In this document: positions 23 through 12,063 of the stretch, in pieces
How the letters are laid out: every line of letters starts with the position of its first letter
Numbering within the stretch: position 1 is the first letter of the stretch
NCBI RefSeq assembly: GCF_000161455.1
Contig: NZ_CM000745.1
Span: 2,699,496-2,723,495, forward strand
From: Bacillus pseudomycoides DSM 12442
Lineage (GTDB): Bacteria; Bacillota; Bacilli; Bacillales; Bacillaceae_G
Reading direction: 5' to 3'
Length of the DNA: 24,000 bases
Made by a program: the position numbers and the translations under genes
Notes under the pieces: model-generated
What the model saw: the letters and a program-made list of their open reading frames with translations, nothing else
What the model was told of the DNA's origin: nothing
Database searches by the model: none

Positions 23-3000
23 ATGGCAGTCAGTACATATCAGTTGTTTCAACACCTTAATATGACAGGAGCACAAGAAGAATTAGCATTGCGTTACTTG
101 CAGACGAGAGATGAAGAAGTTTTAAAGCATATAGAACAAACGACCATTCGCGAAAATAAGCGTAGTGATTTTGCTTGGCAGTTCATGAATGACTTTAGGA
201 AAACATATAAGAAAGATCCAGTGTTTTTTCGGTTATTCTATCATTTACTTGAGGATCAATTGTTGAATGTTCTTCTCGTGCGTTTTTCATATATGAGTTT
301 TCCAGATATAAAGGTTTATTTCGAAAAAAGCGGTCTTTCATTCGATAGACTTGTAGTATTTGCTTGTAAGTATTTAACGAATCTTTCGCGTTCTGTAAAT
401 GAAGCGGATGTTTTTCTTAGACAATTAATAAGGGAGAATCCGAAGTATATAGAAGAACAGTTGCAAGTTATAACAGGTCAGCAAAAATTACTTTTGCTTC
501 TAGTTATGTTAGATGCAGATTATGAGAGATTTCTTCCCTATCGTTCTTTACTGGAAGAAGAATTGGAAGAGCATGCGGAGTATATATTGAGGTTAAGTGG
601 AGCGGAAGAGAAGATTGAAGCAGCTCAAAGGTACGTTCGAGGTGAAGCTGTTAGTAAAGTATTTGCTGGGTCATCTTTACCTGACTTTACTTGGCAGCAA
701 ATTTTTCGTATGTATCCGCATTCGGATGTTGCAAGAAGATATATGGAATTGTTAGTGAAATGCTCTGTAAAAAATTTTATGAATTATGCAATTTCACATG
801 TCAGCCATACTCTTGAACAGTCTGGAAATTACAAAAAAACAAAAAGTTTTTATGCACAATTGTATGAAACAACTCGAGATTTGTGTGAACAATTCGGTAT
901 TTCAGAGGAAAGATTTTTTGCATATCGCCTTACGCAGCATCATTTAGGTGTTGTTGATTTTGATCGCGTATATGAATATCAATTGTTGCTTCGAATGGTG
1001 GAAGAACAACCGGAATTTGTGCAGCGTACACTGCAATATTTAAGTCAAAGTCATTACCTTTTCGTATCAATGCTTTTAGCGGAAAAAGGGTACGAGCTAC
1101 ATAGAAACAAAGTACGTGAAGAGTTTTTAACGGTTGTCCTTCAAACGAAATCATCTGACATACGTGGTACATATCGTGACTATCTATTAGGCACTTTATC
1201 ATTTGAGGATATGAAGCAATGGTTCGAAAGCTCGAAGTTTAGAAATAATTACTGGAGAATGCCTGTTTTAGAAATTGCATTACTTTGGGATATAGAGGAA
1301 GCAGCAAAGAGGGAAGCCACTCTTACGCTTCAACTTGGGAAAGGGTATAACTATAGTTTATATGAACTTCTGCAGCGGTATGCTGCTATGGAGAACTCGC
1401 CAGAACAGGTGCTGGAAGATCTGCTTACCTACGGTTTATCGATGGAGAAGCTCGTTTCTTATTCCATTGAACAAGCTTCCGGGCATAGTGAGAAGCGAGA
1501 TAAGGCGACGGAGGCACTCGTTCGTTTGTTTGTAAAAGAACGAGCGTATGTGAAAGGTGAATTTCCTGAGTATTCTGCAGATGAACGGATTTTTATTTTG
1601 GATGAGTTGGCAAAGGATAACGCAGTTCAGACGCGTGATCTTCTCATTCAAAGTCTTGGGGATTCCTCTAAAAAGGTACGTACCGCTGCAGTTGAACTTC
1701 TTACAAAAGATACGGAAGCTGCAGAAGATGTAGCAAAGGAATTAAATCATAAAAAGAAAGTTGTTCGCGAAAATGCAATGCAAACACTTTTATATTATAA
1801 AACTGACAAATATACAAAGCTTGTACAGGAAGCTTTACAAGAAAAGAAAAACGCTTCTTTGACGGAGAAGTTTGCCCCATTGCTTGGTGACGGGGAATTA
1901 GAAGGAGCATCAGGAAGTATAGAAGCTCTTTGCACGCGTATTTTAACGCCGCAAAAAAGGAATGCACTTGTGCAGTGGATCGGATTTGAACCGCAAATTC
2001 GTCTCCGCGATTCCGATACCATTGCAGATGCAATGATTCCTCTTGCATATTTTCAGCAGTACGTATCAGATTCTGTTATTGAGAAGAAGGAAGTAGCAGA
2101 AGCAATAAGCGCTGCTCTTAACGAACAAGATTTGAAGGAAAATATACAAGCGATCTATCAGCTTTGGGTTTCTCAAGGCGCGGAATCGAAGAAACGCGGT
2201 ATTCTTTCGTTGTACGGTATTTACAGTGATGATGAAATGGCGATGCAACTCAAAAAGCAGATTGATGAGTGGGCGCTTGGTATGCGCGGAGCGATTGCTG
2301 CTGCAGCTGTTCAGGCGCTAGCGTTGTCCCAATCACATATTGGGCTAATGTCTATCCATGCGATGGCATTTAAGTATAAACATAAGCAAGTGCGTAATGC
2401 TGCGAAAGAAGCGCTGAGTCTCGCTGCTAAAACGCGTGGTATTACAGAAGAAGAGCTAGAAGATCAGCTTGTCCCAGACCTTGGGTTTAATAAGCGCGGT
2501 GAAAAGACAATTGATTACGGCAGCAGAACATTTACTGCCTATTTAACTCCAAACTTGAAAATTGAGCTAAAAACGGGAGAAGGAAAACGAATAAAGTCGC
2601 TTCCGAAACCAAATGCAAAAGATGATGCGGAAAAAGCTGAGGAGGCTAAGGCGGAGTTATCCTCTATAAAGAAGCAGCTCCGAACTATGATTACGATGCA
2701 AACGCAGCGTCTTGAAACAGCACTTTCTCTGAATCGCTATTGGTCACAAAATACATGGAAGTCTCTGTTTGTAGAAAATCCAATTCTGCAGCAGTTTGCT
2801 ATCTCCCTTATTTGGGGTGAGTATAAGGAAGGAAAGTTGCTTGCGATGTTCCGCTATATGGAGGATGGCACGTTTAATACGATTGAAGAAGAAGAGCATG
2901 AACTTACGCCAGACACTGTTATCGGTCTAATTCATCCGTTAGAATTGTCCGAGGACGAAAGGGAATTATGGAAGGAACAGCTAGAAGATTATGAGGTTAC

Positions 3001-3451
3001 TCAGCCATTTCCGCAAATTGACCGCGAAGTATTTCAGGTTGAGGAGAATGAGGAAGTCACTGTGGAAAGGTTTGCTGGTATCCAGATCAATGGCCGTTCG
3101 CTGTTTGGTAAGATGACGAAGTACGGCTGGAGTCGTGGATCGGTTCAAGATGCCGGTGTATATTATACATTCTATAAAGAAGATACTCGCGCCGGACTAG
3201 GGGCGGAGCTTGCGTTTGAAGGGGCACCGGTTGGATATGAAGGTGAGGAGGATGTGTGCGTTTTTGAAATTCAATTTTACAAAGCAGGCACGGTGAGCCG
3301 CGGTTCATATGACTACGACGAAATTGATCATGAGAGACGCGTTTTACCGAAGCAAGTATCGGAACGCTTTTTCAGTGAAATTTTATATGATATAAAACGG
3401 GCAACAGAATCGAATCTTGGCCGTGATGAAAACTGGCGCAGCAAGCGATAA
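23..3451 (+). CDS. Large (1142 aa) DUF4132-type protein with HEAT-like repeats (YehI/MolR-like)
   Basis: Uninterrupted 3.4-kb ORF with GGGAGG..AGAGG purine-rich SD just upstream of ATG 23. Has HEAT-like helices (KKVRTAAVELL, VVRENAMQTLL, KQVRNAAKEAL). C-terminal third (NPILQQFAISLIWGEY ... WSRGSVQDAGVYYTFYKE) fits my recollection of DUF4132. Same size and position as E. coli yehI relative to yehLMPQ. Family assignment is by recall only. Confidence 0.75.
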   Translation: MAVSTYQLFQHLNMTGAQEELALRYLQTRDEEVLKHIEQTTIRENKRSDFAWQFMNDFRKTYKKDPVFFRLFYHLLEDQLLNVLLVRFSYMSFPDIKVYFEKSGLSFDRLVVFACKYLTNLSRSVNEADVFLRQLIRENPKYIEEQLQVITGQQKLLLLLVMLDADYERFLPYRSLLEEELEEHAEYILRLSGAEEKIEAAQRYVRGEAVSKVFAGSSLPDFTWQQIFRMYPHSDVARRYMELLVKCSVKNFMNYAISHVSHTLEQSGNYKKTKSFYAQLYETTRDLCEQFGISEERFFAYRLTQHHLGVVDFDRVYEYQLLLRMVEEQPEFVQRTLQYLSQSHYLFVSMLLAEKGYELHRNKVREEFLTVVLQTKSSDIRGTYRDYLLGTLSFEDMKQWFESSKFRNNYWRMPVLEIALLWDIEEAAKREATLTLQLGKGYNYSLYELLQRYAAMENSPEQVLEDLLTYGLSMEKLVSYSIEQASGHSEKRDKATEALVRLFVKERAYVKGEFPEYSADERIFILDELAKDNAVQTRDLLIQSLGDSSKKVRTAAVELLTKDTEAAEDVAKELNHKKKVVRENAMQTLLYYKTDKYTKLVQEALQEKKNASLTEKFAPLLGDGELEGASGSIEALCTRILTPQKRNALVQWIGFEPQIRLRDSDTIADAMIPLAYFQQYVSDSVIEKKEVAEAISAALNEQDLKENIQAIYQLWVSQGAESKKRGILSLYGIYSDDEMAMQLKKQIDEWALGMRGAIAAAAVQALALSQSHIGLMSIHAMAFKYKHKQVRNAAKEALSLAAKTRGITEEELEDQLVPDLGFNKRGEKTIDYGSRTFTAYLTPNLKIELKTGEGKRIKSLPKPNAKDDAEKAEEAKAELSSIKKQLRTMITMQTQRLETALSLNRYWSQNTWKSLFVENPILQQFAISLIWGEYKEGKLLAMFRYMEDGTFNTIEEEEHELTPDTVIGLIHPLELSEDERELWKEQLEDYEVTQPFPQIDREVFQVEENEEVTVERFAGIQINGRSLFGKMTKYGWSRGSVQDAGVYYTFYKEDTRAGLGAELAFEGAPVGYEGEEDVCVFEIQFYKAGTVSRGSYDYDEIDHERRVLPKQVSERFFSEILYDIKRATESNLGRDENWRSKR

Positions 3452-3466
3452 GAAAGGAACTGACAT

Positions 3467-4573
3467 ATGCAGTCTATTAAACCATTAATGGAAGAATTAT
3501 ATGAAATAGAATTGAATGCGTTAGAAGCGAATGATTCGTTTCCGAAACCACCTAACTGGCGATTGTCACCGCGTGCCGTTCGGACGTTTATTATTGGACA
3601 AGAAGAACCGCTTCTTTTAGAAGGAAAAGAAGTGGAAATTAGTCGTAAGTTTTATGGTAATGATGCGCTTGTGGAACGAGCAATTGTCACATTAGCAGGA
3701 AACCGAGGACTTATGTTAATCGGAGAGCCAGGAACAGCAAAGACGATGCTAAGCGAGCTGCTTTCTGCCGCAATATGCAGAAATAGCCGTAACACTGTGC
3801 AAGGAACAGCTGCTACGATGGAAGATACGATTAAGTATTCGTGGAACTATGCACTTCTTCTTGCGAAAGGGCCTGTAAGGGGGGCGCTTGTGCCAGGACC
3901 TCTCTTTGTTGGGATGGAACAAGGGATATTAACTAGATTTGAAGAATTGACTCGCTGTCCGCAGGAAGTGCAAGATTCATTGATCAGCGTTCTGAGCGAT
4001 AAAGTACTAAATATTCCGGAGTTTGGGGAGCAAGGAATTCTTACAGCTAAGCCTGGATTTAATATTATTGCGACGGCTAACACACGAGATCGCGGTGTGA
4101 ATGAGATGAGTAGTGCATTGAAGCGTCGTTTTAATTTTGAAACGGTGCATCCGATTAAGGATGTAAAGCTTGAAGCAAAAATAATAGAGTCACAAGTAAC
4201 GCGCTTATTAGGAGCATCAGGCATCACACCCAAAGTGGATGAGACGGTTGTTCAGCTGTTAGCGACTGTTTTTCATGAACTACGGGAAGGTGTAACTGCT
4301 GAAGGAAAACGAATCGATCAGCCATCTTCTGTTATGAGTACTGCAGAAGCAGTATCGGTATATTATCAAAGCGCAATGGATGCGTATTATTATGGAAGCG
4401 GACAAGTGAAGATGGATGCGCTTGTTCGGTATTTATCGGGCACAATTGCGAAAGAAAACAAGGATGATTTAGAAAAGCTGCGCAGTTACTTTACAAGCAT
4501 CGTTAGGGCGCGAGGTCAAGTAGGAGGAGAGGTATGGAAGTCGTTTTTCGAAGCTCGCAATCAGCTGAAGTAA
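3467..4573 (+). CDS. MoxR-type AAA+ ATPase (AAA_5 / YehL-like)
   Basis: 368 aa. Walker A GEPGTAKT; Walker-B-like ILTRFEEL; sensor-1 IIATANTRD; arginine-finger region SALKRRF. Starts 15 nt after the upstream stop. Confidence 0.85.
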   Translation: MQSIKPLMEELYEIELNALEANDSFPKPPNWRLSPRAVRTFIIGQEEPLLLEGKEVEISRKFYGNDALVERAIVTLAGNRGLMLIGEPGTAKTMLSELLSAAICRNSRNTVQGTAATMEDTIKYSWNYALLLAKGPVRGALVPGPLFVGMEQGILTRFEELTRCPQEVQDSLISVLSDKVLNIPEFGEQGILTAKPGFNIIATANTRDRGVNEMSSALKRRFNFETVHPIKDVKLEAKIIESQVTRLLGASGITPKVDETVVQLLATVFHELREGVTAEGKRIDQPSSVMSTAEAVSVYYQSAMDAYYYGSGQVKMDALVRYLSGTIAKENKDDLEKLRSYFTSIVRARGQVGGEVWKSFFEARNQLK

Positions 4574-6846
4574 ATGCATTGTTTCAAAGAGCTTACAATT
4601 TAGATCACAATGTCGTATATGTGCCGATTCGCCATCATAGTCCTGCGTGCTCTTTTCATGTACAAAAGATCGTTAAATTCTATAAACCGGATGCGATTCT
4701 TATAGAAGGACCGATAGATTGCAACCCTCTTATTCCGCATATTGTGAGTGCAGAAAGTGAGGCTCCAATTTGTATATATTGCAGTTATGATGATAAAACG
4801 GATGTGCTTGAAAGAGGAGAAAGTGGAAAGTACCGTGCGTACTATCCCTTTCTCGACTATTCACCGGAACTTGTCGCGCTGCGGGAAGGAGCTGCGCGCA
4901 ATATTCCAGTTTCATTTATTGATCTTCCTTATAAAGAATATTTGTTTGCAACGAAAAATGAGGAAGAGAATGGGAAGTATGACGAGCAATATTTCCGGCA
5001 CAGTCAATATGTCCGTATGCTTTCGGAAAAAACGGGGTGCCGAAGCTTTCATGAATTTTGGGAGAAATACTTTGAGTTGCAAGGCTTTCATATGACAAGC
5101 GAGGAGTTTGTCCGTCAGCTCTTCGATTATTGTTATTATACGCGCGCGGACTATACGCAGGAGATGTTGACAGAAGACGGATGCGAAGCCAGGGAGATAC
5201 ACATGGCAAAGGAAATTGAAAAAGCGCGTAAAGTGTATGACAAGGTGCTCGTTATTACCGGAGGCTTTCATGTGAAAGGGCTTCTTGAATTGGAAGGGAA
5301 AAAGAAAAAGAAAAAGCTGTCCAAAAGCCCATTATCTAAAGCGTATGCCAAAAACTATCTTATGCCGTATTCCTTTTTGGAAAGCGATCAGATGCGTGGC
5401 TATGAGAGCGGTATGCCTGCACCTGCTTTTTACCAACATATTTGGGAGAACAGGGATGAAGCGGTAGCTGAGCAATTTATGATACGAATTGCTAGACAGC
5501 TAAAGGCAGAAGGAATATCAATGGCAGATAAGATTGAAGCTGCGCGAATGATACGTGAACTTGCACTGCTTCGGGGAAAGATGCAACCTGGATTGTATGA
5601 ACTGATGGATGCAGTGCGTAGTGCATTTGTGAAAGGTGAGATATTCTCGGCAGATAAACCTTTAACGCTGCTTCAGAAGAGTTTGCAAGGGACGAAGCGC
5701 GGAAAATTGTCAAAAGAAGCGGATGTGCCGCCGCTCGTGCATGATTTTCGTGCTTCTGTTCGTTCGTTTCGTCTTCCGGCACGTTCTACTGTACCACAGG
5801 AGACGATTCTTGACATATACAAGAAAGAAAGGCACTTGCGTTTAAGTCAGTTCTTTCATTGCCTCGCTTTTTTAGGAGTTCCGTTTTGCGAGAAGCTGCG
5901 CGGTCCGAACCTAGCTAGAAAGCAGAATATTAATCTTATACGAGAAACTTGGAAATATCGTTTCTCAGCGCAGGTGGAAAGTGCTCTTATTGATTTATCT
6001 GTGTATGGCGGAACGGTGAGAGAAGCCGCGCAGGAAATGCTAAGAGCAAAGCTGTATAAGGCGAAAGTGCGTGCGGGAGAGGTGGCTCTTTTATTGCTAG
6101 AAGCCTACTTAAGTGGTTTGTTTTCCGATTTCGCTATGTACAATCAGTTTATAGATGAAGCAATACAGGCGGATGGAGATTTTGCTTCTATGGCAGATTG
6201 TGCTTACTATTTATCACAAATAGAAAAAGAAAATCAGCAAGCGGATCATGCTAGACATAAAGCACTTTCGTTATTTTCTGTTTTAGATGGGGGCGAACCA
6301 GCAATTACTGCGGAAAAACTTATTGATTTGTATACAATGCAGCCTGCAGACCAGCAATTTATTGAAGCACTGGAGCTTTATTTGCAAAGGGAAAAACGAG
6401 AAAGCCAAGTAGAAGGGGCAGTATTTGGGCTGTTAACTTCTTTAGGGAAGCGGAAAATCGATGAGGTAATGCAAGTGGCAGAAGGATATTTTTATGGAAG
6501 TGGCGATATGCAAAAGCAAGCTCCGATATTTTTGAATGGTTTGTTTGCTGGCGCAAAAGATATCTTCTTATATAACGAATCGCTGCTTGACGGAATGTCT
6601 CATGTTCTAGAAGAACTTGATGAAGAGACATTTTTACAAGTATTGCCGCATTTGCGCCTCTTGTTCAGTCAATTCACGCCGCTTGAGGTGGATACGATTG
6701 CTAAACAGATTGCGCGGTTATATGGAGCCACAGAAGAAGTGATAAAAGAAGAAGCAATTTCCGAAGAAGTGCTGACGTATGCAATACAGTTAGATCGCAA
6801 GGCACGGGAAATTTTAATGAGACGGGGGCTAGAAGATGGAGAATAA
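4534..6846 (+). CDS. DUF5682-type protein (YehM-like), 770 aa
   Basis: Long ORF. AGGAGGAG SD at 4522-4529, 4-6 nt before ATG 4534. Overlaps the ATPase gene by 40 nt. Size and position match yehM/DUF5682 in AAA-DUF5682-vWA-SWIM clusters (recall). Confidence 0.7.
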   Translation: MEVVFRSSQSAEVNALFQRAYNLDHNVVYVPIRHHSPACSFHVQKIVKFYKPDAILIEGPIDCNPLIPHIVSAESEAPICIYCSYDDKTDVLERGESGKYRAYYPFLDYSPELVALREGAARNIPVSFIDLPYKEYLFATKNEEENGKYDEQYFRHSQYVRMLSEKTGCRSFHEFWEKYFELQGFHMTSEEFVRQLFDYCYYTRADYTQEMLTEDGCEAREIHMAKEIEKARKVYDKVLVITGGFHVKGLLELEGKKKKKKLSKSPLSKAYAKNYLMPYSFLESDQMRGYESGMPAPAFYQHIWENRDEAVAEQFMIRIARQLKAEGISMADKIEAARMIRELALLRGKMQPGLYELMDAVRSAFVKGEIFSADKPLTLLQKSLQGTKRGKLSKEADVPPLVHDFRASVRSFRLPARSTVPQETILDIYKKERHLRLSQFFHCLAFLGVPFCEKLRGPNLARKQNINLIRETWKYRFSAQVESALIDLSVYGGTVREAAQEMLRAKLYKAKVRAGEVALLLLEAYLSGLFSDFAMYNQFIDEAIQADGDFASMADCAYYLSQIEKENQQADHARHKALSLFSVLDGGEPAITAEKLIDLYTMQPADQQFIEALELYLQREKRESQVEGAVFGLLTSLGKRKIDEVMQVAEGYFYGSGDMQKQAPIFLNGLFAGAKDIFLYNESLLDGMSHVLEELDEETFLQVLPHLRLLFSQFTPLEVDTIAKQIARLYGATEEVIKEEAISEEVLTYAIQLDRKAREILMRRGLEDGE

Positions 6847-7942
6847 CATTTCTTTAAATCGCTGGCGTCTTGTTCTTGGGAAACATGCAGATGACCAAAT
6901 CACATTTCAGGAAGAAGACCCTGCATACAGAGCAATGGATGAGGTACTGGAGTTTTTGTACGAGAGAGAACGCGGAGAAGAACGCGGCGGGTCGTTGGAT
7001 CCCTCTCAGCTAACAGTGCCGACTTGGATTTCGAAAGTGCGGGAGTTATTTCCGAAAGAAACCATTGAGATTATGGAAAATCATGCGCTAGAAAAGTATG
7101 AATTAACGGCTCTATTGCAAGATAAGCAAACGCTTGAAAAAATGGAGCCGAATATGAATTTATTAAAATGCATTTTACAATTTAAAGATTATGTAAAACC
7201 GGATGTATTAGACACAGCTAAACGTATTGTAGCGAAAGTCGCTGAGGAGTTGCGGCGTAATTTAGAGCAAGAAGTGAAGCACGCATTAAGCGGTAGACCA
7301 GATCGAAATCGTTCTAGTCGCGTTCGCACGATGCGCAACTTTGATTTTAAGAAAACGATTCGAAAGAACTTAAAGCATTTTGACAAGGAAACAAACGCCA
7401 TTCATATTGAAAAACCGTACTTTTATGCTGCCACGAAGCACGTTAGCCCATGGCGTGTGATCCTCGCAGTAGACGAGAGCGGAAGTATGATTGATTCTGT
7501 TATTCATAGCGCAGTTATGGCGGGTATTTTTGCAAGCTTACCGACGATTAAGACAGATCTGTTCATCTTTGATACAGCTGTTGTTGATTTAACGGATCGT
7601 ATTGACGACCCGGTGGAAACGCTTATGAGCGTACAGCTTGGGGGAGGAACATATATTGCTCAGGCGCTGCGCTACGCAACGAATAAAATCGAGATGCCTC
7701 ATAAAACAATTGTCGTGCTTGTAACAGACTTATATGAAGGTGGCAGTTACAATGAAATGTACCGAGAAGCGATGAAGATTGTAGAATCAGGAGCAAAGCT
7801 GATCGTGCTAACATCTCTGGATCCGACTGCACAGCCTTTTTATGATAAACAGGCAGCTAAAAAAATGGCGGCGCTCGGTGCTCATGTAGCGGCGTTAACA
7901 CCAGGGAGGTTGGCACAATGGATCGCAACAATCATTTCTTAA
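6836..7942 (+). CDS. von Willebrand factor A (vWA) domain protein with MIDAS (YehP-like)
   Basis: 368 aa. MIDAS DxSxS as ILAVDESGSM, downstream GGGT (QLGGGTYIAQAL) and VLVTDLYEGG. Overlaps the upstream gene by 11 nt. Confidence 0.85.
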   Translation: MENNISLNRWRLVLGKHADDQITFQEEDPAYRAMDEVLEFLYERERGEERGGSLDPSQLTVPTWISKVRELFPKETIEIMENHALEKYELTALLQDKQTLEKMEPNMNLLKCILQFKDYVKPDVLDTAKRIVAKVAEELRRNLEQEVKHALSGRPDRNRSSRVRTMRNFDFKKTIRKNLKHFDKETNAIHIEKPYFYAATKHVSPWRVILAVDESGSMIDSVIHSAVMAGIFASLPTIKTDLFIFDTAVVDLTDRIDDPVETLMSVQLGGGTYIAQALRYATNKIEMPHKTIVVLVTDLYEGGSYNEMYREAMKIVESGAKLIVLTSLDPTAQPFYDKQAAKKMAALGAHVAALTPGRLAQWIATIIS

Positions 7943-9552
7943 ATGTTCTTTCCTCTATTGATGAAACATACTTAATTGCCATGTCTAACAAAGGAACATA
8001 TAAGAGAGCAATGAAGGATTTGGCCGTTGTATCAAATGTCAAAATGGACGTAGAAGAGGGTGCAGCGCAAATACATCTTGATGACGGAATTACTGTAACG
8101 TTTACGGGTGATATACGCAGTTACTCTTGTAGTTGTGAAGCCCGTTCGATTTGTAAACATGTCATTATGGCTCTATTAGAAGCAAAGAAGATGTACGAAG
8201 GTGAAGAGAACATAAAAGTTGATTTCTCTGCTCTTTTGAATGTGAACGTTCGCAATATTGTCTCCGAAAAAATGTGGGCTGAAATGATGTTTCGCGAAAC
8301 ATTTCAGCAAAAGTTTGTTTTAGAAGAAGAGGGGGCTTTAATTGCCACTTTCCGAGAAGAGAATATAACAGTTCGCTTTCTAACAGCTGAATCGGTAGCG
8401 GCTGCGATCTGTACGTGCAAAGCAGAGGGGATATGCCGGCATAAGGCGGAAGCGGTATATTGGTATCAAAAAGAGAAGGGAATCTCGCACGAAACGAAAC
8501 AGATGCATCCTCTTATCATTGCGCCGGATAAGCTATCTATTTTCAAAGAAATGATCGAGCAAATTGTTCACTTTGGATTAACACGCCTTACCGAAAATAC
8601 AATCTATGAAATAGAACAACTTTCTGTAAAAGCACGTTCTTTGAAACTCGCAAAGTTAGAGAATTTATTTCGTAAGCTCGGGGCGGATATTGGGCTATAT
8701 CGGATGAAGCATGCATCTTTTCAAATGGCATCTTATCGGCAAACGGTGTCCGCGATTTATGAACACATTTTGTTGTTGGAACGCCACCATCTGCAAGAGA
8801 GTCCGTTTCGTTCGGAATATTACGAAGTTCCACCACTTATTTTGCATGCTTTTGGTGCATCTGGCTGGCAAACGAAGTCTGGTTATGTTGGTGTGACGTA
8901 TTATTTCTATAATCGAGAACAGGAAAAGTGGATTACATACACACAGTCGCGCCCCATGTTTTATGAAGGGAGCAGCACAACTCCTGAAGAACTCCATGAA
9001 AGGCAAGTTCCATGGGGAATTGCAGGGAAAGGATACGAACTATCTCGTTCATCTGTCCGATTGAAGCAGGCAAAACTTAACGTCGATTTTCAATTGTCAT
9101 CTAGCTCACAGACAGTAGGAGAAGTGGAAGGAAAAACAAATGTGGCAGAGTGGCAATCTCTCTTTTTAACCTCATGGGAAGAACTATTAAAAAAAGTAAA
9201 AGAGCAAAGGTTAGAGGCAAATAAACAAGGAATCTTTTGTATCGAAGTTGCTGAAATAGGAGAATGGAAGTTTCAGAAGCAAGAACAAAAATGGATCATA
9301 CCTCTTATCGATAAGAATGGGAAAACATTGCAAATGCAAATGATGAAACGACCAGAAAATGAGCGAATGATTCGACTTGTAAAAATATATATGGACTCGT
9401 TGCATATAAAGAGAATGCTAGTTCATCCTTATCAGGAAGGAACAAAGCTCGTTGTTACACCTATCATTTTATATACAGAAGCAGGAGAGATTATAAATAC
9501 TACACTGAGTGAAGGGGGAACGTTCTATGATCGAGTTAATGCGCCTAATTGA
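7918..9552 (+). CDS. SWIM zinc-finger protein with two SWIM motifs (YehQ-like)
   Basis: 544 aa. GGGAGG SD 8 nt before ATG 7918. Two CxCx5CxH motifs: CSCEARSICKH (nt 8128-8160) and CTCKAEGICRH (nt 8413-8445). Overlaps the vWA gene by 25 nt. Confidence 0.8.
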   Translation: MDRNNHFLNVLSSIDETYLIAMSNKGTYKRAMKDLAVVSNVKMDVEEGAAQIHLDDGITVTFTGDIRSYSCSCEARSICKHVIMALLEAKKMYEGEENIKVDFSALLNVNVRNIVSEKMWAEMMFRETFQQKFVLEEEGALIATFREENITVRFLTAESVAAAICTCKAEGICRHKAEAVYWYQKEKGISHETKQMHPLIIAPDKLSIFKEMIEQIVHFGLTRLTENTIYEIEQLSVKARSLKLAKLENLFRKLGADIGLYRMKHASFQMASYRQTVSAIYEHILLLERHHLQESPFRSEYYEVPPLILHAFGASGWQTKSGYVGVTYYFYNREQEKWITYTQSRPMFYEGSSTTPEELHERQVPWGIAGKGYELSRSSVRLKQAKLNVDFQLSSSSQTVGEVEGKTNVAEWQSLFLTSWEELLKKVKEQRLEANKQGIFCIEVAEIGEWKFQKQEQKWIIPLIDKNGKTLQMQMMKRPENERMIRLVKIYMDSLHIKRMLVHPYQEGTKLVVTPIILYTEAGEIINTTLSEGGTFYDRVNAPN

Positions 9553-9805
9553 TGAATTGGAAGAAGTTCTAGATGAGATGCTTGTCTCAGGAGCAGGGAC
9601 TGTCCCTCTTTCCTTTTTTCAGGATATAAAACGAGAATGCGAAAAGTATGGTCTTTCTTATGCTGCCACGCAGGTGCTTATCATAGAGGAAGAGCGAAAC
9701 AAGGCCCGCTTTCTTCATAAAGAAGAAACAAACAAACTGACAGAAGCATTTTGTAAGTTGCAGGAATATATTCAAGTTATAAAGGCTGAAATGCTGCATT
9801 TATAA
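9527..9805 (+). CDS. Small (92 aa) predicted helical protein of unknown function, last gene of the operon
   Basis: GAAGGGGGA SD at 9511-9519 then ATG 9527 (the ORF track starts at GTG 9509). Overlaps the SWIM gene by 26 nt. No recognisable motif. Confidence 0.5.
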   Translation: MIELMRLIDELEEVLDEMLVSGAGTVPLSFFQDIKRECEKYGLSYAATQVLIIEEERNKARFLHKEETNKLTEAFCKLQEYIQVIKAEMLHL

Positions 9806-9930
9806 ATAGCTGGGTTAGTAGATGAATATTGAATTTAAATAAAAAGGTTTTCGCTAGAAGTATGCTGAAGAAGAAACGAAAACGCTCGCAGTGGGGAGAA
9901 ATTGTACTGATTTTCCGAAAGTACTAATAA

Positions 9931-9959
9931 TTGCCAAAATATTAATTTGCAAGTATAAT
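9931..9959 (+). promoter_or_regulatory. Sigma-A-type promoter for the Y-RNA array
   Basis: TTGCCA (9931-9936), 17-nt spacer, TATAAT (9954-9959). Predicted start about 9966, roughly 25 nt before the first Y-RNA unit. Confidence 0.55.
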
Positions 9960-9991
9960 AATAGTAAGAACGATGAGTGATAAAAAGAAAA

Positions 9992-10132
9992 GGGCAGTGT
10001 AGGAAAGAATTTCTTCGCCTTTCACGCGGTAGGTCGCAGGTTCGAATCCTTGCCTTCCCTGATGTTTTATTAACATTAGGGGAGTAGCTCAGTTTGGTAG
10101 AGCAACATATTGAGTCTTTCCGCCTATCTCCC
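9992..10132 (+). ncRNA. Y RNA, YrlA-like (unit 1) with circularly permuted tRNA-like module
   Basis: Terminal stem GGG(C)AG..UA..GGAAAGA (9992-10008) pairs with UCUUUCC..UA.CU.CCC (10115-10132). T-arm with GGTTCGAATCC (10039-10049). 7-bp acceptor-like helix CUUCCCU/AGGGGAG capped by hairpin AUGUU-UUAUU-AACAU. D-arm TAGCTCAGTTTGGTAGAGCA (10085-10104). T6 tract follows. Lies next to rsr. Confidence 0.78.
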
Positions 10133-10160
10133 TTTTTTATAATTCATATTTAATAGATTT

Positions 10161-10285
10161 GGGCAGTGTAGAGAAGGATTTCTTCGCTTTGGGTGCCGTG
10201 TGTCATGGGTTCGAATCCCATCCTTCCCATTTTGGAAGGTAGCTCAGTGGTAGAGCAACGTAATGAGCCTTTTCGCTTATCTCCC
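10161..10285 (+). ncRNA. Y RNA, YrlA-like (unit 2) with circularly permuted tRNA-like module
   Basis: Same architecture as unit 1. GGG(C)AG..UA..GAGAAGG (10161-10177) pairs with CCUUUUC..UA.CU.CCC (10268-10285). Perfect T-arm AUGGG-UUCGAAU-CCCAU (10205-10221). Acceptor-like CCUUCC/GGAAGG closed by a short loop. D-arm TAGCTCAGTGGTAGAGCA (10240-10257). Confidence 0.78.
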
Positions 10286-10306
10286 AAATCTTTAAACATT
10301 ATATAT

Positions 10307-10481
10307 AACAGGAACAGTGTAGATAGCCCATGCTTCGTTTGCTAATATTAAGTGCTATAGATTCGATCCTAATCGATGCGGAAAGGTCCGCACCGAATTC
10401 GTACTTTTCTTTGATTCATAACACTAAGGTAGGAGTTACTTCGTCATATAGGGATTGTGTTTGTGGGATTCGATTCCTGTT
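10307..10481 (+). ncRNA. Third, divergent Y-RNA-like/structured RNA unit
   Basis: Perfect 8-bp closing helix AACAGGAA (10307-10314) / TTCCTGTT (10474-10481). Shares the CAGTGTAG motif (10315-10322) with units 1 and 2. Two T-loop-like GATTCGATYC motifs (10359-10369, 10465-10477). Internal hairpin GCGGA-AAGG-UCCGC near 10377-10390. No clear D-arm. Confidence 0.4.
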
Positions 10482-10512
10482 TTGAATATTTCTTAAGTGT
10501 TAGGAATGAGTG

Positions 10513-10545
10513 AAAAAAGGCAACGTATATACGTTGCCTTTTTTA
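10513..10545 (+). terminator. Rho-independent terminator closing the Y-RNA array
   Basis: A-tract, palindrome GGCAACGTAT/ATACGTTGCC (10519-10538), then T6 (10539-10544). Confidence 0.8.
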
Positions 10546-10557
10546 TTTGTATTTCAA

Positions 10558-10581
10558 CCAGCAGTGTCAAAAAATCTCTGG
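10558..10581 (+). promoter_or_regulatory. Mini-hairpin in the rsr leader that mimics the Y-RNA terminal stem and overlaps the SD
   Basis: CCAG(C)AG-UGU...AU-CU-CUGG. Pairs 10558:10581, 10559:10580, 10560:10579, 10561:10578, bulged C10562, then 10563:10577 and 10564:10576. Shares the strings GCAGUGU and AUCUC with units 1 and 2. G10580-G10584 is the SD for ATG 10594. Confidence 0.35.
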
Positions 10582-10593
10582 GGGTAGATCATA

Positions 10594-12063
10594 ATGTCAA
10601 AGTTTAATCATTCTTCTCAAGGAAGCCGTCAAACATATACAAAAGAGGGCGGAAAAGCTTATAAAATGTATGATAAAGATAAATTAGTTACGATGGTATT
10701 AACATCTTTCTTTAATGAGCCAAAATTTTATGGTAATAACAGCGAAGAATTAGTTACTACTGCAAAACAAATCATGGACAGAGACCCTAAATTTGTTGCA
10801 AGTTTAGCAGTCTATGCACGTGAAGTGTTCTACATGCGTTCTGTTACACATGTATTAGCAGTGGAACTTGCAAACCACCCTGAAGGTCGTAAATATGCTC
10901 GTCAAACAGTTTCTCGTATTGCGCAGCGTCCGGATGATGTAACAGAAATAATGGCATATCAATTAGGGGTATATGGTCGGAAAAATCCAATTCCAAACTC
11001 TTTGAAAAAGGGGTTAGCAGATGCCTTTTCTACATTTGATGAATATCAATTAGCAAAATACAATCGCACAGGAAAAGACGTTACATTGAAAGATGTATTC
11101 CGTTTAGTAAGCCCATCTGCCAAAAAAGGAACAGAACGTTACGAACTTTATAAACGTTTGTTAGAAAACACACTGCAAGTACCATATACATGGGAAACAC
11201 AGCTTTCTCAAAAAGGAAACAAAAAAGAAGTGTGGGAAGAATTAATTGATAGCGGAAAAGTGGGTTATATGGCCTTACTTCGTAACCTTCGCAATATCGT
11301 AAATTCAGGTGCCTCAAATATTGATACAGTATATAACATTCTTCGCGATCCTGAGCGAGTAAAAAAATCAAAACAATTACCATTTCGCTTTTTTTCAGCA
11401 TATCGTGTTGTGCAAGAAAAATTACCACAAGCAGGAAGCGAATTATTAGATATATTGAATGACGCAATTGAAGCATCTGTTACAAACATGCCGAGATTAT
11501 CAGGAACAACATTTATGACAGCAGATATCTCAGGATCTATGACATGTTATCCTGTTTCAAAAGATGGGAGTGTTAAATGTGCAGATATTGCTACACTAAT
11601 GATGGCAATGGCACACTCCTTCTGTGATAATTCTATTACATCTGTATTCGCAACTGATTTCAAAGCGATAAATGTTTCTACCCGTTCTGGTATTTTAGAG
11701 AACATGAACACATTTTTATCAGAAGTTAATAAACATGGATATGGAACAAACTTACATCTTTCTATCAAATATTTATTAGATCACAAAATCAAAGTTGACC
11801 GCATTCTTGTCTTCTCTGATGAGCAAGTGTACGGAGATAGGTATGGAGACAATTCTTCACAAATTCTTCTTGAAACATATCGTCGTGAAATGAATCCTGA
11901 TGTTTGGGTTCACTCTTTCAATTTAAATAGTTACGGTAATCAACAATTCGTAGGAGAGAAAACAAATTTAATCGGTGGCTGGAGTGAAAAATGTTTGGAC
12001 TTCATTCATTATGCGGAAGAAGGAACAGGTTCCCTTATTTCAGCTATCGAAAATTATCAATAA
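10594..12063 (+). CDS. rsr: Ro60-related protein Rsr (TROVE domain + C-terminal vWA/MIDAS)
   Basis: 489 aa. N-terminal TROVE-like sequence (KLVTMVLTSFFNEPKFYGN, FVASLAVYAREVFYMRSVTHVL, YMALLRNLRNI, LPFRFFSAY). C-terminal MIDAS TADISGSMT. Adjacent to the Y-RNA-like genes. Confidence 0.9.
   Translation: MSKFNHSSQGSRQTYTKEGGKAYKMYDKDKLVTMVLTSFFNEPKFYGNNSEELVTTAKQIMDRDPKFVASLAVYAREVFYMRSVTHVLAVELANHPEGRKYARQTVSRIAQRPDDVTEIMAYQLGVYGRKNPIPNSLKKGLADAFSTFDEYQLAKYNRTGKDVTLKDVFRLVSPSAKKGTERYELYKRLLENTLQVPYTWETQLSQKGNKKEVWEELIDSGKVGYMALLRNLRNIVNSGASNIDTVYNILRDPERVKKSKQLPFRFFSAYRVVQEKLPQAGSELLDILNDAIEASVTNMPRLSGTTFMTADISGSMTCYPVSKDGSVKCADIATLMMAMAHSFCDNSITSVFATDFKAINVSTRSGILENMNTFLSEVNKHGYGTNLHLSIKYLLDHKIKVDRILVFSDEQVYGDRYGDNSSQILLETYRREMNPDVWVHSFNLNSYGNQQFVGEKTNLIGGWSEKCLDFIHYAEEGTGSLISAIENYQ

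Follow-up and report, generated by a model that had tools for sequence, protein, structure and literature searches.

A Y-RNA-like element in the leader of the Bacillus pseudomycoides rsr gene and its possible role in the control of Rsr synthesis

Ro60 binds animal Y RNAs at a bulged helix (PMC4201824, PMC12135203), where it is reported to contact mainly the 5' strand (PMC4201824; bioRxiv 10.1101/312249). A phage Ro60 has been found to bind a minimal stem-bulge-stem mimic with a dissociation constant of about 17 nM (PMC12135203), and for bacterial Rsr and its Y RNAs the published motif is GNCGAAN0-1G, or CGAA, near the 5' end (PMC4201824, PMC12135203). The present analysis is concerned with the leader of rsr, the gene of the Ro60 orthologue, in a stretch of 24,000 nucleotides (nt) from Bacillus pseudomycoides DSM 12442 (contig NZ_CM000745.1, positions 2,699,496 to 2,723,495 of the forward strand). 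This whole stretch is called the window, and positions refer to it unless another locus is named. Between an array of Y-RNA units and the rsr start codon lies a 24-nt element which resembles a part of the ends of these units and which overlaps the Shine-Dalgarno (SD) sequence of the gene.

In the bulged helices bound by Ro60 or Rsr in animal Y RNAs, in Yrn1 and Yrn2 of D. radiodurans and in YrlA and YrlB, as in the leader element, the helix is followed by one bulged pyrimidine in its 5' strand, a step of 2 base pairs (bp) and conserved unpaired bases, and the Y RNAs of Ro60/Rsr systems likewise have rsr as a neighbour on the strand that encodes them. In contrast to these helices, the leader element measures 24 nt, has a stem of 4+2 bp that ends in a loop and is located in an mRNA leader and not at the ends of a small RNA; unlike Y RNAs, it carries neither an effector module nor GNCGAAN0-1G / CGAA. 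Firmicute-type Y units share with the leader element the 5' letters [C/U]AGUG[C/U], the AG:CU pairs, the 3' letters (A/U)UCU and the site immediately upstream of rsr. They differ from it in having an inner stem and UUACUUCG, while a terminator stands between the array and the leader element, whose 3' strand is fused to the SD sequence.

Autogenous translational operators that mimic the main RNA ligand of a protein are known for the ribosomal proteins S8, S15, L1 and L20 and for ThrRS of E. coli, whose thrS operator is tRNA-like. The logic proposed below for the rsr leader is the same, in that the ribosome binding site carries a reduced copy of the ligand, through which excess protein represses its own translation, and the leader element does overlap the ribosome binding site of rsr. 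Compared with these operators, the putative leader mimic is much weaker and not universally conserved. A full-text literature search gave no report of autoregulation of Rsr or Ro60 through its own leader, the matches to 'autoregulat' being concerned with PNPase, and no regulatory input on rsr translation was found in the literature searched.

Resemblance and conservation of the leader element

The features on which the argument depends are given here; loci fetched for comparison carry L numbers.

10594-12063, + strand: rsr, a Ro60 orthologue of 489 amino acids with TROVE and Ro60 vWA domains
10558-10581, + strand: leader hairpin CCAG-C-AG-UGUCAAAAAAU-CU-CUGG, a partial copy of the Y terminal module
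10562-10567, + strand: 5' block C-AG-UGU of the hairpin, fitting the Y-unit hallmark [C/U]AGUG[C/U]; retained in L011, L027 and L029, CAGUAC in L012
10580-10584, + strand: Shine-Dalgarno sequence GGGGG, followed after 9 nt by the ATG at 10594; GGAGG in L011, L012, L027 and L029

The 24 nt of the element read CCAGCAGTGTCAAAAAATCTCTGG. Its possible pairs are as given in a preliminary description of this DNA, with C10558-G10581, C10559-G10580, A10560-U10579 and G10561-C10578 forming the helix, C10562 bulged, and A10563-U10577 and G10564-C10576 following as the AG:CU step. Two further claims of that description hold: the strings GCAGTGT and ATCTC are found letter for letter in unit 1 (GGGCAGTGTAGG...CCTATCTCCC) and unit 2 (GGGCAGTGTAGAG...CTTATCTCCC) of the array, and the 3' strand of the hairpin runs into the SD sequence, G10580 and G10581 being common to the helix and to GGGGG.

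The window and 40 fetched loci were parsed into 52 distinct Y units, and from these a consensus of the Firmicute terminal module was obtained. The module begins with an outer helix of 4-15 bp (typically 7-15), a 1-nt bulge that is C or U and rarely A, an A-G step paired to C-U, and a 5' loop strand UGYA. It continues through an inner stem of 7-10 bp, (U)UACUUCG and the effector domain, and is completed by the return strand of the inner stem, G-N-Y-U-W-U, CU and the outer helix. When 24 collapsed modules are aligned without gaps, A8, U10, G11, A13, U17 and U21 do not vary. The outer helix covaries, with 7 of 8 pairs altered on both sides and 95.8% of cells paired compared with 72% in shuffles, a figure that is partly inflated as units were chosen with helices of at least 4 bp. 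Two units of locus L026 (1300-1451) have AU:AU in place of the AG:CU found elsewhere, a compensatory double change that supports both pairs. The Y units of the window itself have 9-bp outer helices and an inner stem of 7-10 bp, with the invariant A13 and U17 in the internal loop. With its helix, single bulged pyrimidine, two pairs and asymmetric loop, the terminal module is similar in layout to the bulged helix at which Ro60 binds animal Y RNAs, and by analogy it is probably the site of Rsr. The consensus stands regardless of whether the leader element is a mimic; the Rfam YrlA model covers neither the outer bulged module nor the (U)UACUUCG motif.

With this module the leader shares a helix of 4 bp, the minimum seen, the bulge, AG:CU, and the bases U10, G11, Y12 and U19. 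Position weight matrices made from true units score the three unit starts of the window at 18.6, 18.6 and 13.9 bits; among 47,980 positions of the window, the 5' block of the leader, at 6.0 bits, comes 27th, and the 3' block is at rank 402. In a 20-Mb Markov simulation, a hairpin that has no less than 4 bp in its helix and otherwise only what is invariant in the family arose with P ~3e-3 per 50-nt leader, and a looser pattern, drawn up post hoc, with P ~1.5e-4; the strict family pattern does not fit the window leader. The Rfam YrlA model (RF02553) gave no match in the leader up to E = 10, the only matches there to other Rfam models being terminator-driven noise (Termite-leu, Phe_leader). Taken as a single sequence, the leader thus has a partial likeness to Y units (p ~0.003-0.02 from simulation and matrices) which is real and modestly above chance.

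Conservation in orthologues is the stronger argument. A block AG[C/U]AGUG...A6-8...U(U)CU[C/U]UGG[A/G]GG is conserved among rsr leaders as far as the case in which the proteins are only 59% identical and synonymous sites are saturated, and it is borne by five lineages, namely the window group and the following four.

L011, Rsr 81% identical to that of the window: CCAG-C-AG-UGC-CAAAAAA-U-CU-CUGG-AGG
L027/L028, Rsr 75% identical: CCAG-U-AG-UGU-A8-U-CU-CUGG-AGG
L012, Rsr 69% identical: AAAG-C-AG-UAC-CA7-U-CU-UUGG-AGG
L029, Rsr 59% identical: AAAG-C-AG-UGC-AAAAAACAAAAAU-U-CU-CUGG-AGG

Leader identity to the window is 0.92 in L011, 0.81 in L012 and 0.78 in L029, and unrelated leaders aligned in the same way reach 0.58-0.64. 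At four-fold synonymous sites of the gene, the same three loci show identities of 0.64, 0.66 and 0.39; across the motif-bearing lineages these sites are 39-66% identical, and the flanking intergenic sequence is unalignable. Within the leaders, the bulge (C/U) and the last base of UGY (U/C) vary only inside the range of true Y units. The window belongs to a relative of the Bacillus cereus group. Homologues in B. arachidis, B. bingmayongensis, B. bruguierae and others share 94-97% of their residues with the window Rsr, and close relatives (94-99%) keep the leader with U as the bulge in all cases. Both the 1-nt bulge and AG:CU are kept in L002-4, L006, L011, L012, L014, L017, L027 and L029.

A second protein search, with query P0005, found no closer relatives in the database and added four loci at 57-58% identity to P0005, which are without the motif. 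Viral contigs scanned for the leader pattern gave three matches, none of them the orthologous leader by sequence (the presence of rsr nearby was not checked).

Proposed autoregulation and competing explanations

The evidence of constraint on the leader element is moderate, and an autoregulatory role is a plausible reading of the comparison. Given the birth and decay of units in the array, the element is best seen as a putative derivative of a Y unit, either of its collapsed terminal stem or of its opening ~25 nt, the second alternative making AUCUCUGG the counterpart of UUUCUUCG. The mini Y unit which stands before rsr at Clostridia-type loci is a plausible ancestor.

The proposed mechanism is as follows. 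The 24-nt element would be a stripped-down Y-unit derivative in the 5' untranslated region of rsr in one Bacillus-like clade, and it would keep the part most likely to be read by Rsr, that is the short helix, the 1-nt C/U bulge, the A-U and G-C pairs and the unpaired UG(Y) on the 5' strand. The rsr message would probably be made by read-through of the terminator from the array promoter, because no sigma-A promoter fits between the terminator and the ATG. Rsr molecules free of Y RNA would then bind the leader mimic and, as the 3' strand overlaps the SD sequence, would impede binding of the 30S subunit and lower the translation of rsr. Since the hairpin pairs only the first two SD bases, it could act strongly only with a factor bound to it; the 5' block, which is conserved, unpaired and identical to that of Y units, points to a factor that recognises these units, most simply Rsr itself, and the conservation of UG(Y) in spite of being unpaired suggests sequence-specific recognition.

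That the leader element is a Y-derived, clade-restricted mimic which binds Rsr and acts on translation is the account we tentatively prefer, at somewhat less than an even chance, and lower weight is placed on the sign of the effect. We infer from the sequences that Rsr would bind the leader and would repress rather than stabilise; protection of the message by Rsr, which would constitute positive feedback, is a possible alternative. The more specific proposition that Rsr senses its own excess over Y RNA by way of a minimal mimic fused to its SD sequence is doubtful, if conceivable. If true, the circuit would be the first autoregulatory one described for any Ro60-family protein and would provide a simple titration mechanism, of the type known from ribosomal proteins, that sets the ratio of Rsr to Y RNA. 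The principle of translational feedback through a ligand mimic is known, and it would here take a new form with a Y-RNA module. A minimal (~24 nt) Rsr recognition element of Firmicute Y RNAs, made up of bulge, AG:CU and UGY, would become available for use in biochemistry.

Many observations weigh against such a mimic. The preliminary description saw in the leader a copy of the Y stem element for element, which is overstated: C stands at the place of A13 and A at that of U17, the inner stem and UUACUUCG are missing with the loop strands bridged by a run of A, and the helix has 4 bp compared with 9 bp in the units of the window and 7-15 bp in real Y units. Among the orthologous leaders, L027 and L029 do have A at position 13, where the window group, L011 and L012 have C, and the invariant U17, three bases before CU, is replaced by A in every one (AAAAAU or AAAAUU). 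CGAA does not occur in 10546-10593, so that the leader is without the published GNCGAAN0-1G / CGAA motif; this motif is also missing from the outer modules of the window Y units. To our knowledge, the determinant of Rsr binding in Firmicute Y RNAs has never been mapped.

The scores from structural models are weak as well. A covariance model built from the terminal modules of 24 true units, which is an artificial construct joining both strands of the internal loop and is only roughly calibrated, gives 2.9 bits for the window leader (E = 0.26 in the 55 nt searched), 5.3 bits for that of L027 and 3.8 bits for that of L029; in a scan of the whole window the leader is not among the 17 matches with E <= 10. 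The fold of 10546-10610 predicted by RNAfold has -7.5 kcal/mol and z = 0.00 relative to shuffles. By itself, the hairpin masks only 2 of the 5 SD bases and leaves the central ones predicted to be free.

Conservation, too, is incomplete. The preliminary description made the preservation of the GCAGUGU...AUCUC pairing in orthologous leaders a touchstone; the motif does persist in five lineages down to 59% identity, but covariation is missing, AG:CU is lost in one subclade and nothing of the motif is seen at 57% identity or less. Among the leaders compared, no compensatory change was found in the paired positions, just losses or changes to wobble pairs. In the subclade with ACAUC (L001/L018, L005 and L007, with proteins 96-97% identical), ACAUCUGG stands in place of AUCUCUGG and the G-C pair of AG:CU is lost; L001/L018 also have CG for AG, by which both pairs are lost. 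The Y units and rsr are intact at these loci despite the loss of AG:CU. L012 and L029 have AA for CC, which breaks the outer two pairs and leaves 2 of 4. The 3' strand is under constraint as part of the SD sequence anyway. The loci without the motif, at Rsr identities of 57% or less, are L013, L033, L035, L036-L040, L009 and L010 from Clostridium, the Blautia-like L008 and L023, and L020-L026. Most of the motif-less loci have instead a Y unit, full or mini, whose end is 20-60 nt from the ATG, as a rule without an intervening terminator, and in L033 and L035 a small open reading frame (ORF) lies between the Y units and rsr.

The weak model scores and the loss of fine structure in close relatives are what would be expected of a relic, the remnant, without any role related to Rsr, of the last Y unit of an array that turns over by duplication and decay, of which the 3' half persists as SD sequence and A-rich initiation region. 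Such a relic could stem from a collapsed terminal stem or from the first ~25 nt of a unit (GCAGUGU, a purine run and UUUCUUCG), and the leader aligns about equally to the 5' part of unit 1 and to the collapsed stem. Decayed units are present in the same arrays, as seen from unit 3 of the window in comparison with L011 506-760 and from the gutted homologue of unit 2 in L011. Yet the 5' block AG[C/U]AGUG, ~30 nt before the ATG and outside the SD sequence, is still present where the proteins share 59% of their residues, four-fold sites are down to 0.39 and upstream flanks can no longer be aligned. A neutral relic should have decayed at such saturated divergence, and retention of the block therefore weakens this explanation, which we consider unlikely but deserving of serious attention.

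The same 5' motif is common to all Y units, and other bacteria process the Y RNAs encoded upstream of rsr out of a single precursor (PMC4201824). A further possibility is that the element is a processing or stability signal, read by the nuclease that releases the units or by a protective factor, which sets or protects the 5' end of the rsr mRNA; its place 8-14 nt past the conserved terminator is one where a new 5' end would be useful. If the protective factor were Rsr, positive feedback would result. No nuclease motif is known for these Y units, however, a 4-bp helix alone cannot stop a 5' exonuclease, and the overlap with the SD sequence would be superfluous, which makes this explanation distinctly improbable.

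Pairing of CCAG with CUGG is predicted with high probability in most orthologues, and in the ACAUC subclade the change from UCUC to ACAUC leaves the outer helix unchanged and creates a new, stronger hairpin of 4+4 bp, CCAG-(2-nt bulge)-GUGU:ACAU-CUGG (L001/L018, L005 and L007). This suggests that the hairpin itself is kept, as it would be if it acted in cis and independently of protein by pairing the first SD bases, with the Y-like letters due to coincidence or ancestry. Against such a plain hairpin stand the coverage of 2 of 5 SD bases with the central bases predicted free, a fold z of 0, the loss of the outer pairs in L012 and L029 and the conservation of the unpaired UG(Y), for which it has no explanation; it is more improbable still.

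A signal at the level of DNA, such as an operator in the imperfect inverted repeat CCAG(C)AG-N11-CTCTGG, an rsr promoter or an antisense transcript that ends at the bidirectional terminator, can draw on the palindromic repeat and on a minus-strand promoter-like sequence TTGAGA-18-CATTAT with an upstream TG, but is hardly credible in view of promoter-like sites at chance frequency (10 found, 9.8 expected), minus-strand hexamers that coincide with the start codon and conserved codons, the lack of a fitting plus-strand promoter, and an inverted repeat that is not kept in L012, L029 and the ACAUC subclade. The minus-strand sequence is located at 10620-10591 and faces the bidirectional terminator; an antisense RNA of ~50-70 nt over the leader could arise from it.

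Other candidates in and around the leader were rejected. From the terminator to the ATG there are 49 nt only, and a search for an rsr promoter within this spacer gave no sigma-A fit; the best plus-strand candidate, GTGTCA-18-GATAAT in relatives, has its predicted transcription start inside the ORF. A SigB-like GGGTAG in the spacer is better explained as SD sequence plus spacer, relatives having GGAGGTAG or GGAGGAUG. A leader peptide of 15 codons, from TTG at 10547 to TAA at 10592-10594 with a TAATG overlap with the rsr start codon, is without an SD sequence, is disrupted by insertions and deletions in relatives and contains a stop in L011. Pairing in trans of leader strands with Y-unit strands was dismissed as well, there being no complementarity past AG:CU.

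The Y-RNA array and its surroundings

The features upstream of the leader are the following.

9931-9959, + strand: promoter-like site of the sigma-70 type, TTGCCA-17-TATAAT, with 11/12 matches, with which the array begins; putative in function
9986-10138, + strand: Y unit 1, YrlA-like, 33.2 bits with Rfam YrlA (at the E-value threshold only), fold z = -3.6
10155-10291, + strand: Y unit 2, YrlA-like, 44.7 bits with Rfam YrlA (at the E-value threshold only), terminal module as in unit 1
about 10309-10476, + strand: Y unit 3, partly decayed, with the 5' motif GGAACAGUGUAG intact (13.9 bits with the 5' matrix at 10312) and a decayed body
10513-10544, + strand: strong intrinsic terminator between array and rsr, 14-pair stem and T-run; drawn to 10550 as a feature

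Unit 1 is composed of a 9-bp outer helix, the bulged C, AG:CU, the internal loop UGUA/GCCUAU, the inner stem GGAAAGA:UCUUUCC and tRNA-like T and D arms. The similarity of units 1 and 2 to YrlA is confined to this tRNA-like part, the Rfam model having no outer bulged module, and at the gathering threshold (69 for RF02553) no Rfam match was obtained anywhere in the window. A tRNA-Pro(UGG) called by ARAGORN at 10160-10230 is in fact the 5' stem and T arm of unit 2. The region of the promoter-like site is also conserved in L002-L007.

Y arrays plainly turn over, with units that are born and decay directly in the 5' region of rsr. In its body, unit 3 resembles two units fused together, of which the counterparts are still distinct and intact in L011 (506-760), a locus which also holds the gutted homologue of unit 2. 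Mini Y units without the tRNA-like domain are found upstream of rsr in Clostridium (L009, L010, L020 and L036); at Clostridia-type loci the mini Y unit is placed 20-45 nt 5' of the rsr ATG.

The terminator of the array is kept in L001-L007 and L011, and L027 has a terminator of other sequence in an equivalent place. Terminators of unrelated sequence between array and rsr are thus present in separate lineages (10513-10544 in the window, 1-26 in L027 and about 1040-1130 in L037), which suggests repeated selection for uncoupling the levels of Y RNA and rsr mRNA. L037 has the terminator and no mini stem. Directly 5' of the terminator, at 10491-10512, lies a 21-nt spacer, GUGUUAGGAAUGAGUGAAAAG, which is conserved as far as L011 (Rsr 81% identical), with the sequence GUGUUAAGAAUGAGUGAAAAG there.

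Five genes occupy positions 23-9552, directly upstream of the Y array, and encode a DUF4132/HEAT protein, a MoxR-type AAA protein, a DUF5682 protein, a VWA CoxE-like protein and a SWIM zinc finger protein. This cluster is followed by an unannotated ORF of 98 amino acids at 9509-9805. BLAST searches of plasmids and phages with 9930-12063 gave no match.

At L038 and L040, a genuine-looking tRNA with the anticodon loop CUUGCAA (UGC/Ala) and a CCA end is situated between Y units about 100-190 nt upstream of rsr. L013, L036 and L039 contain rsr homologues of 52-58% identity with long Y arrays in phage-like contexts, in which HNH endonuclease, YorF and YonG_N domains are encoded; YorF and YonG_N domains are typical of SPbeta-like phages.

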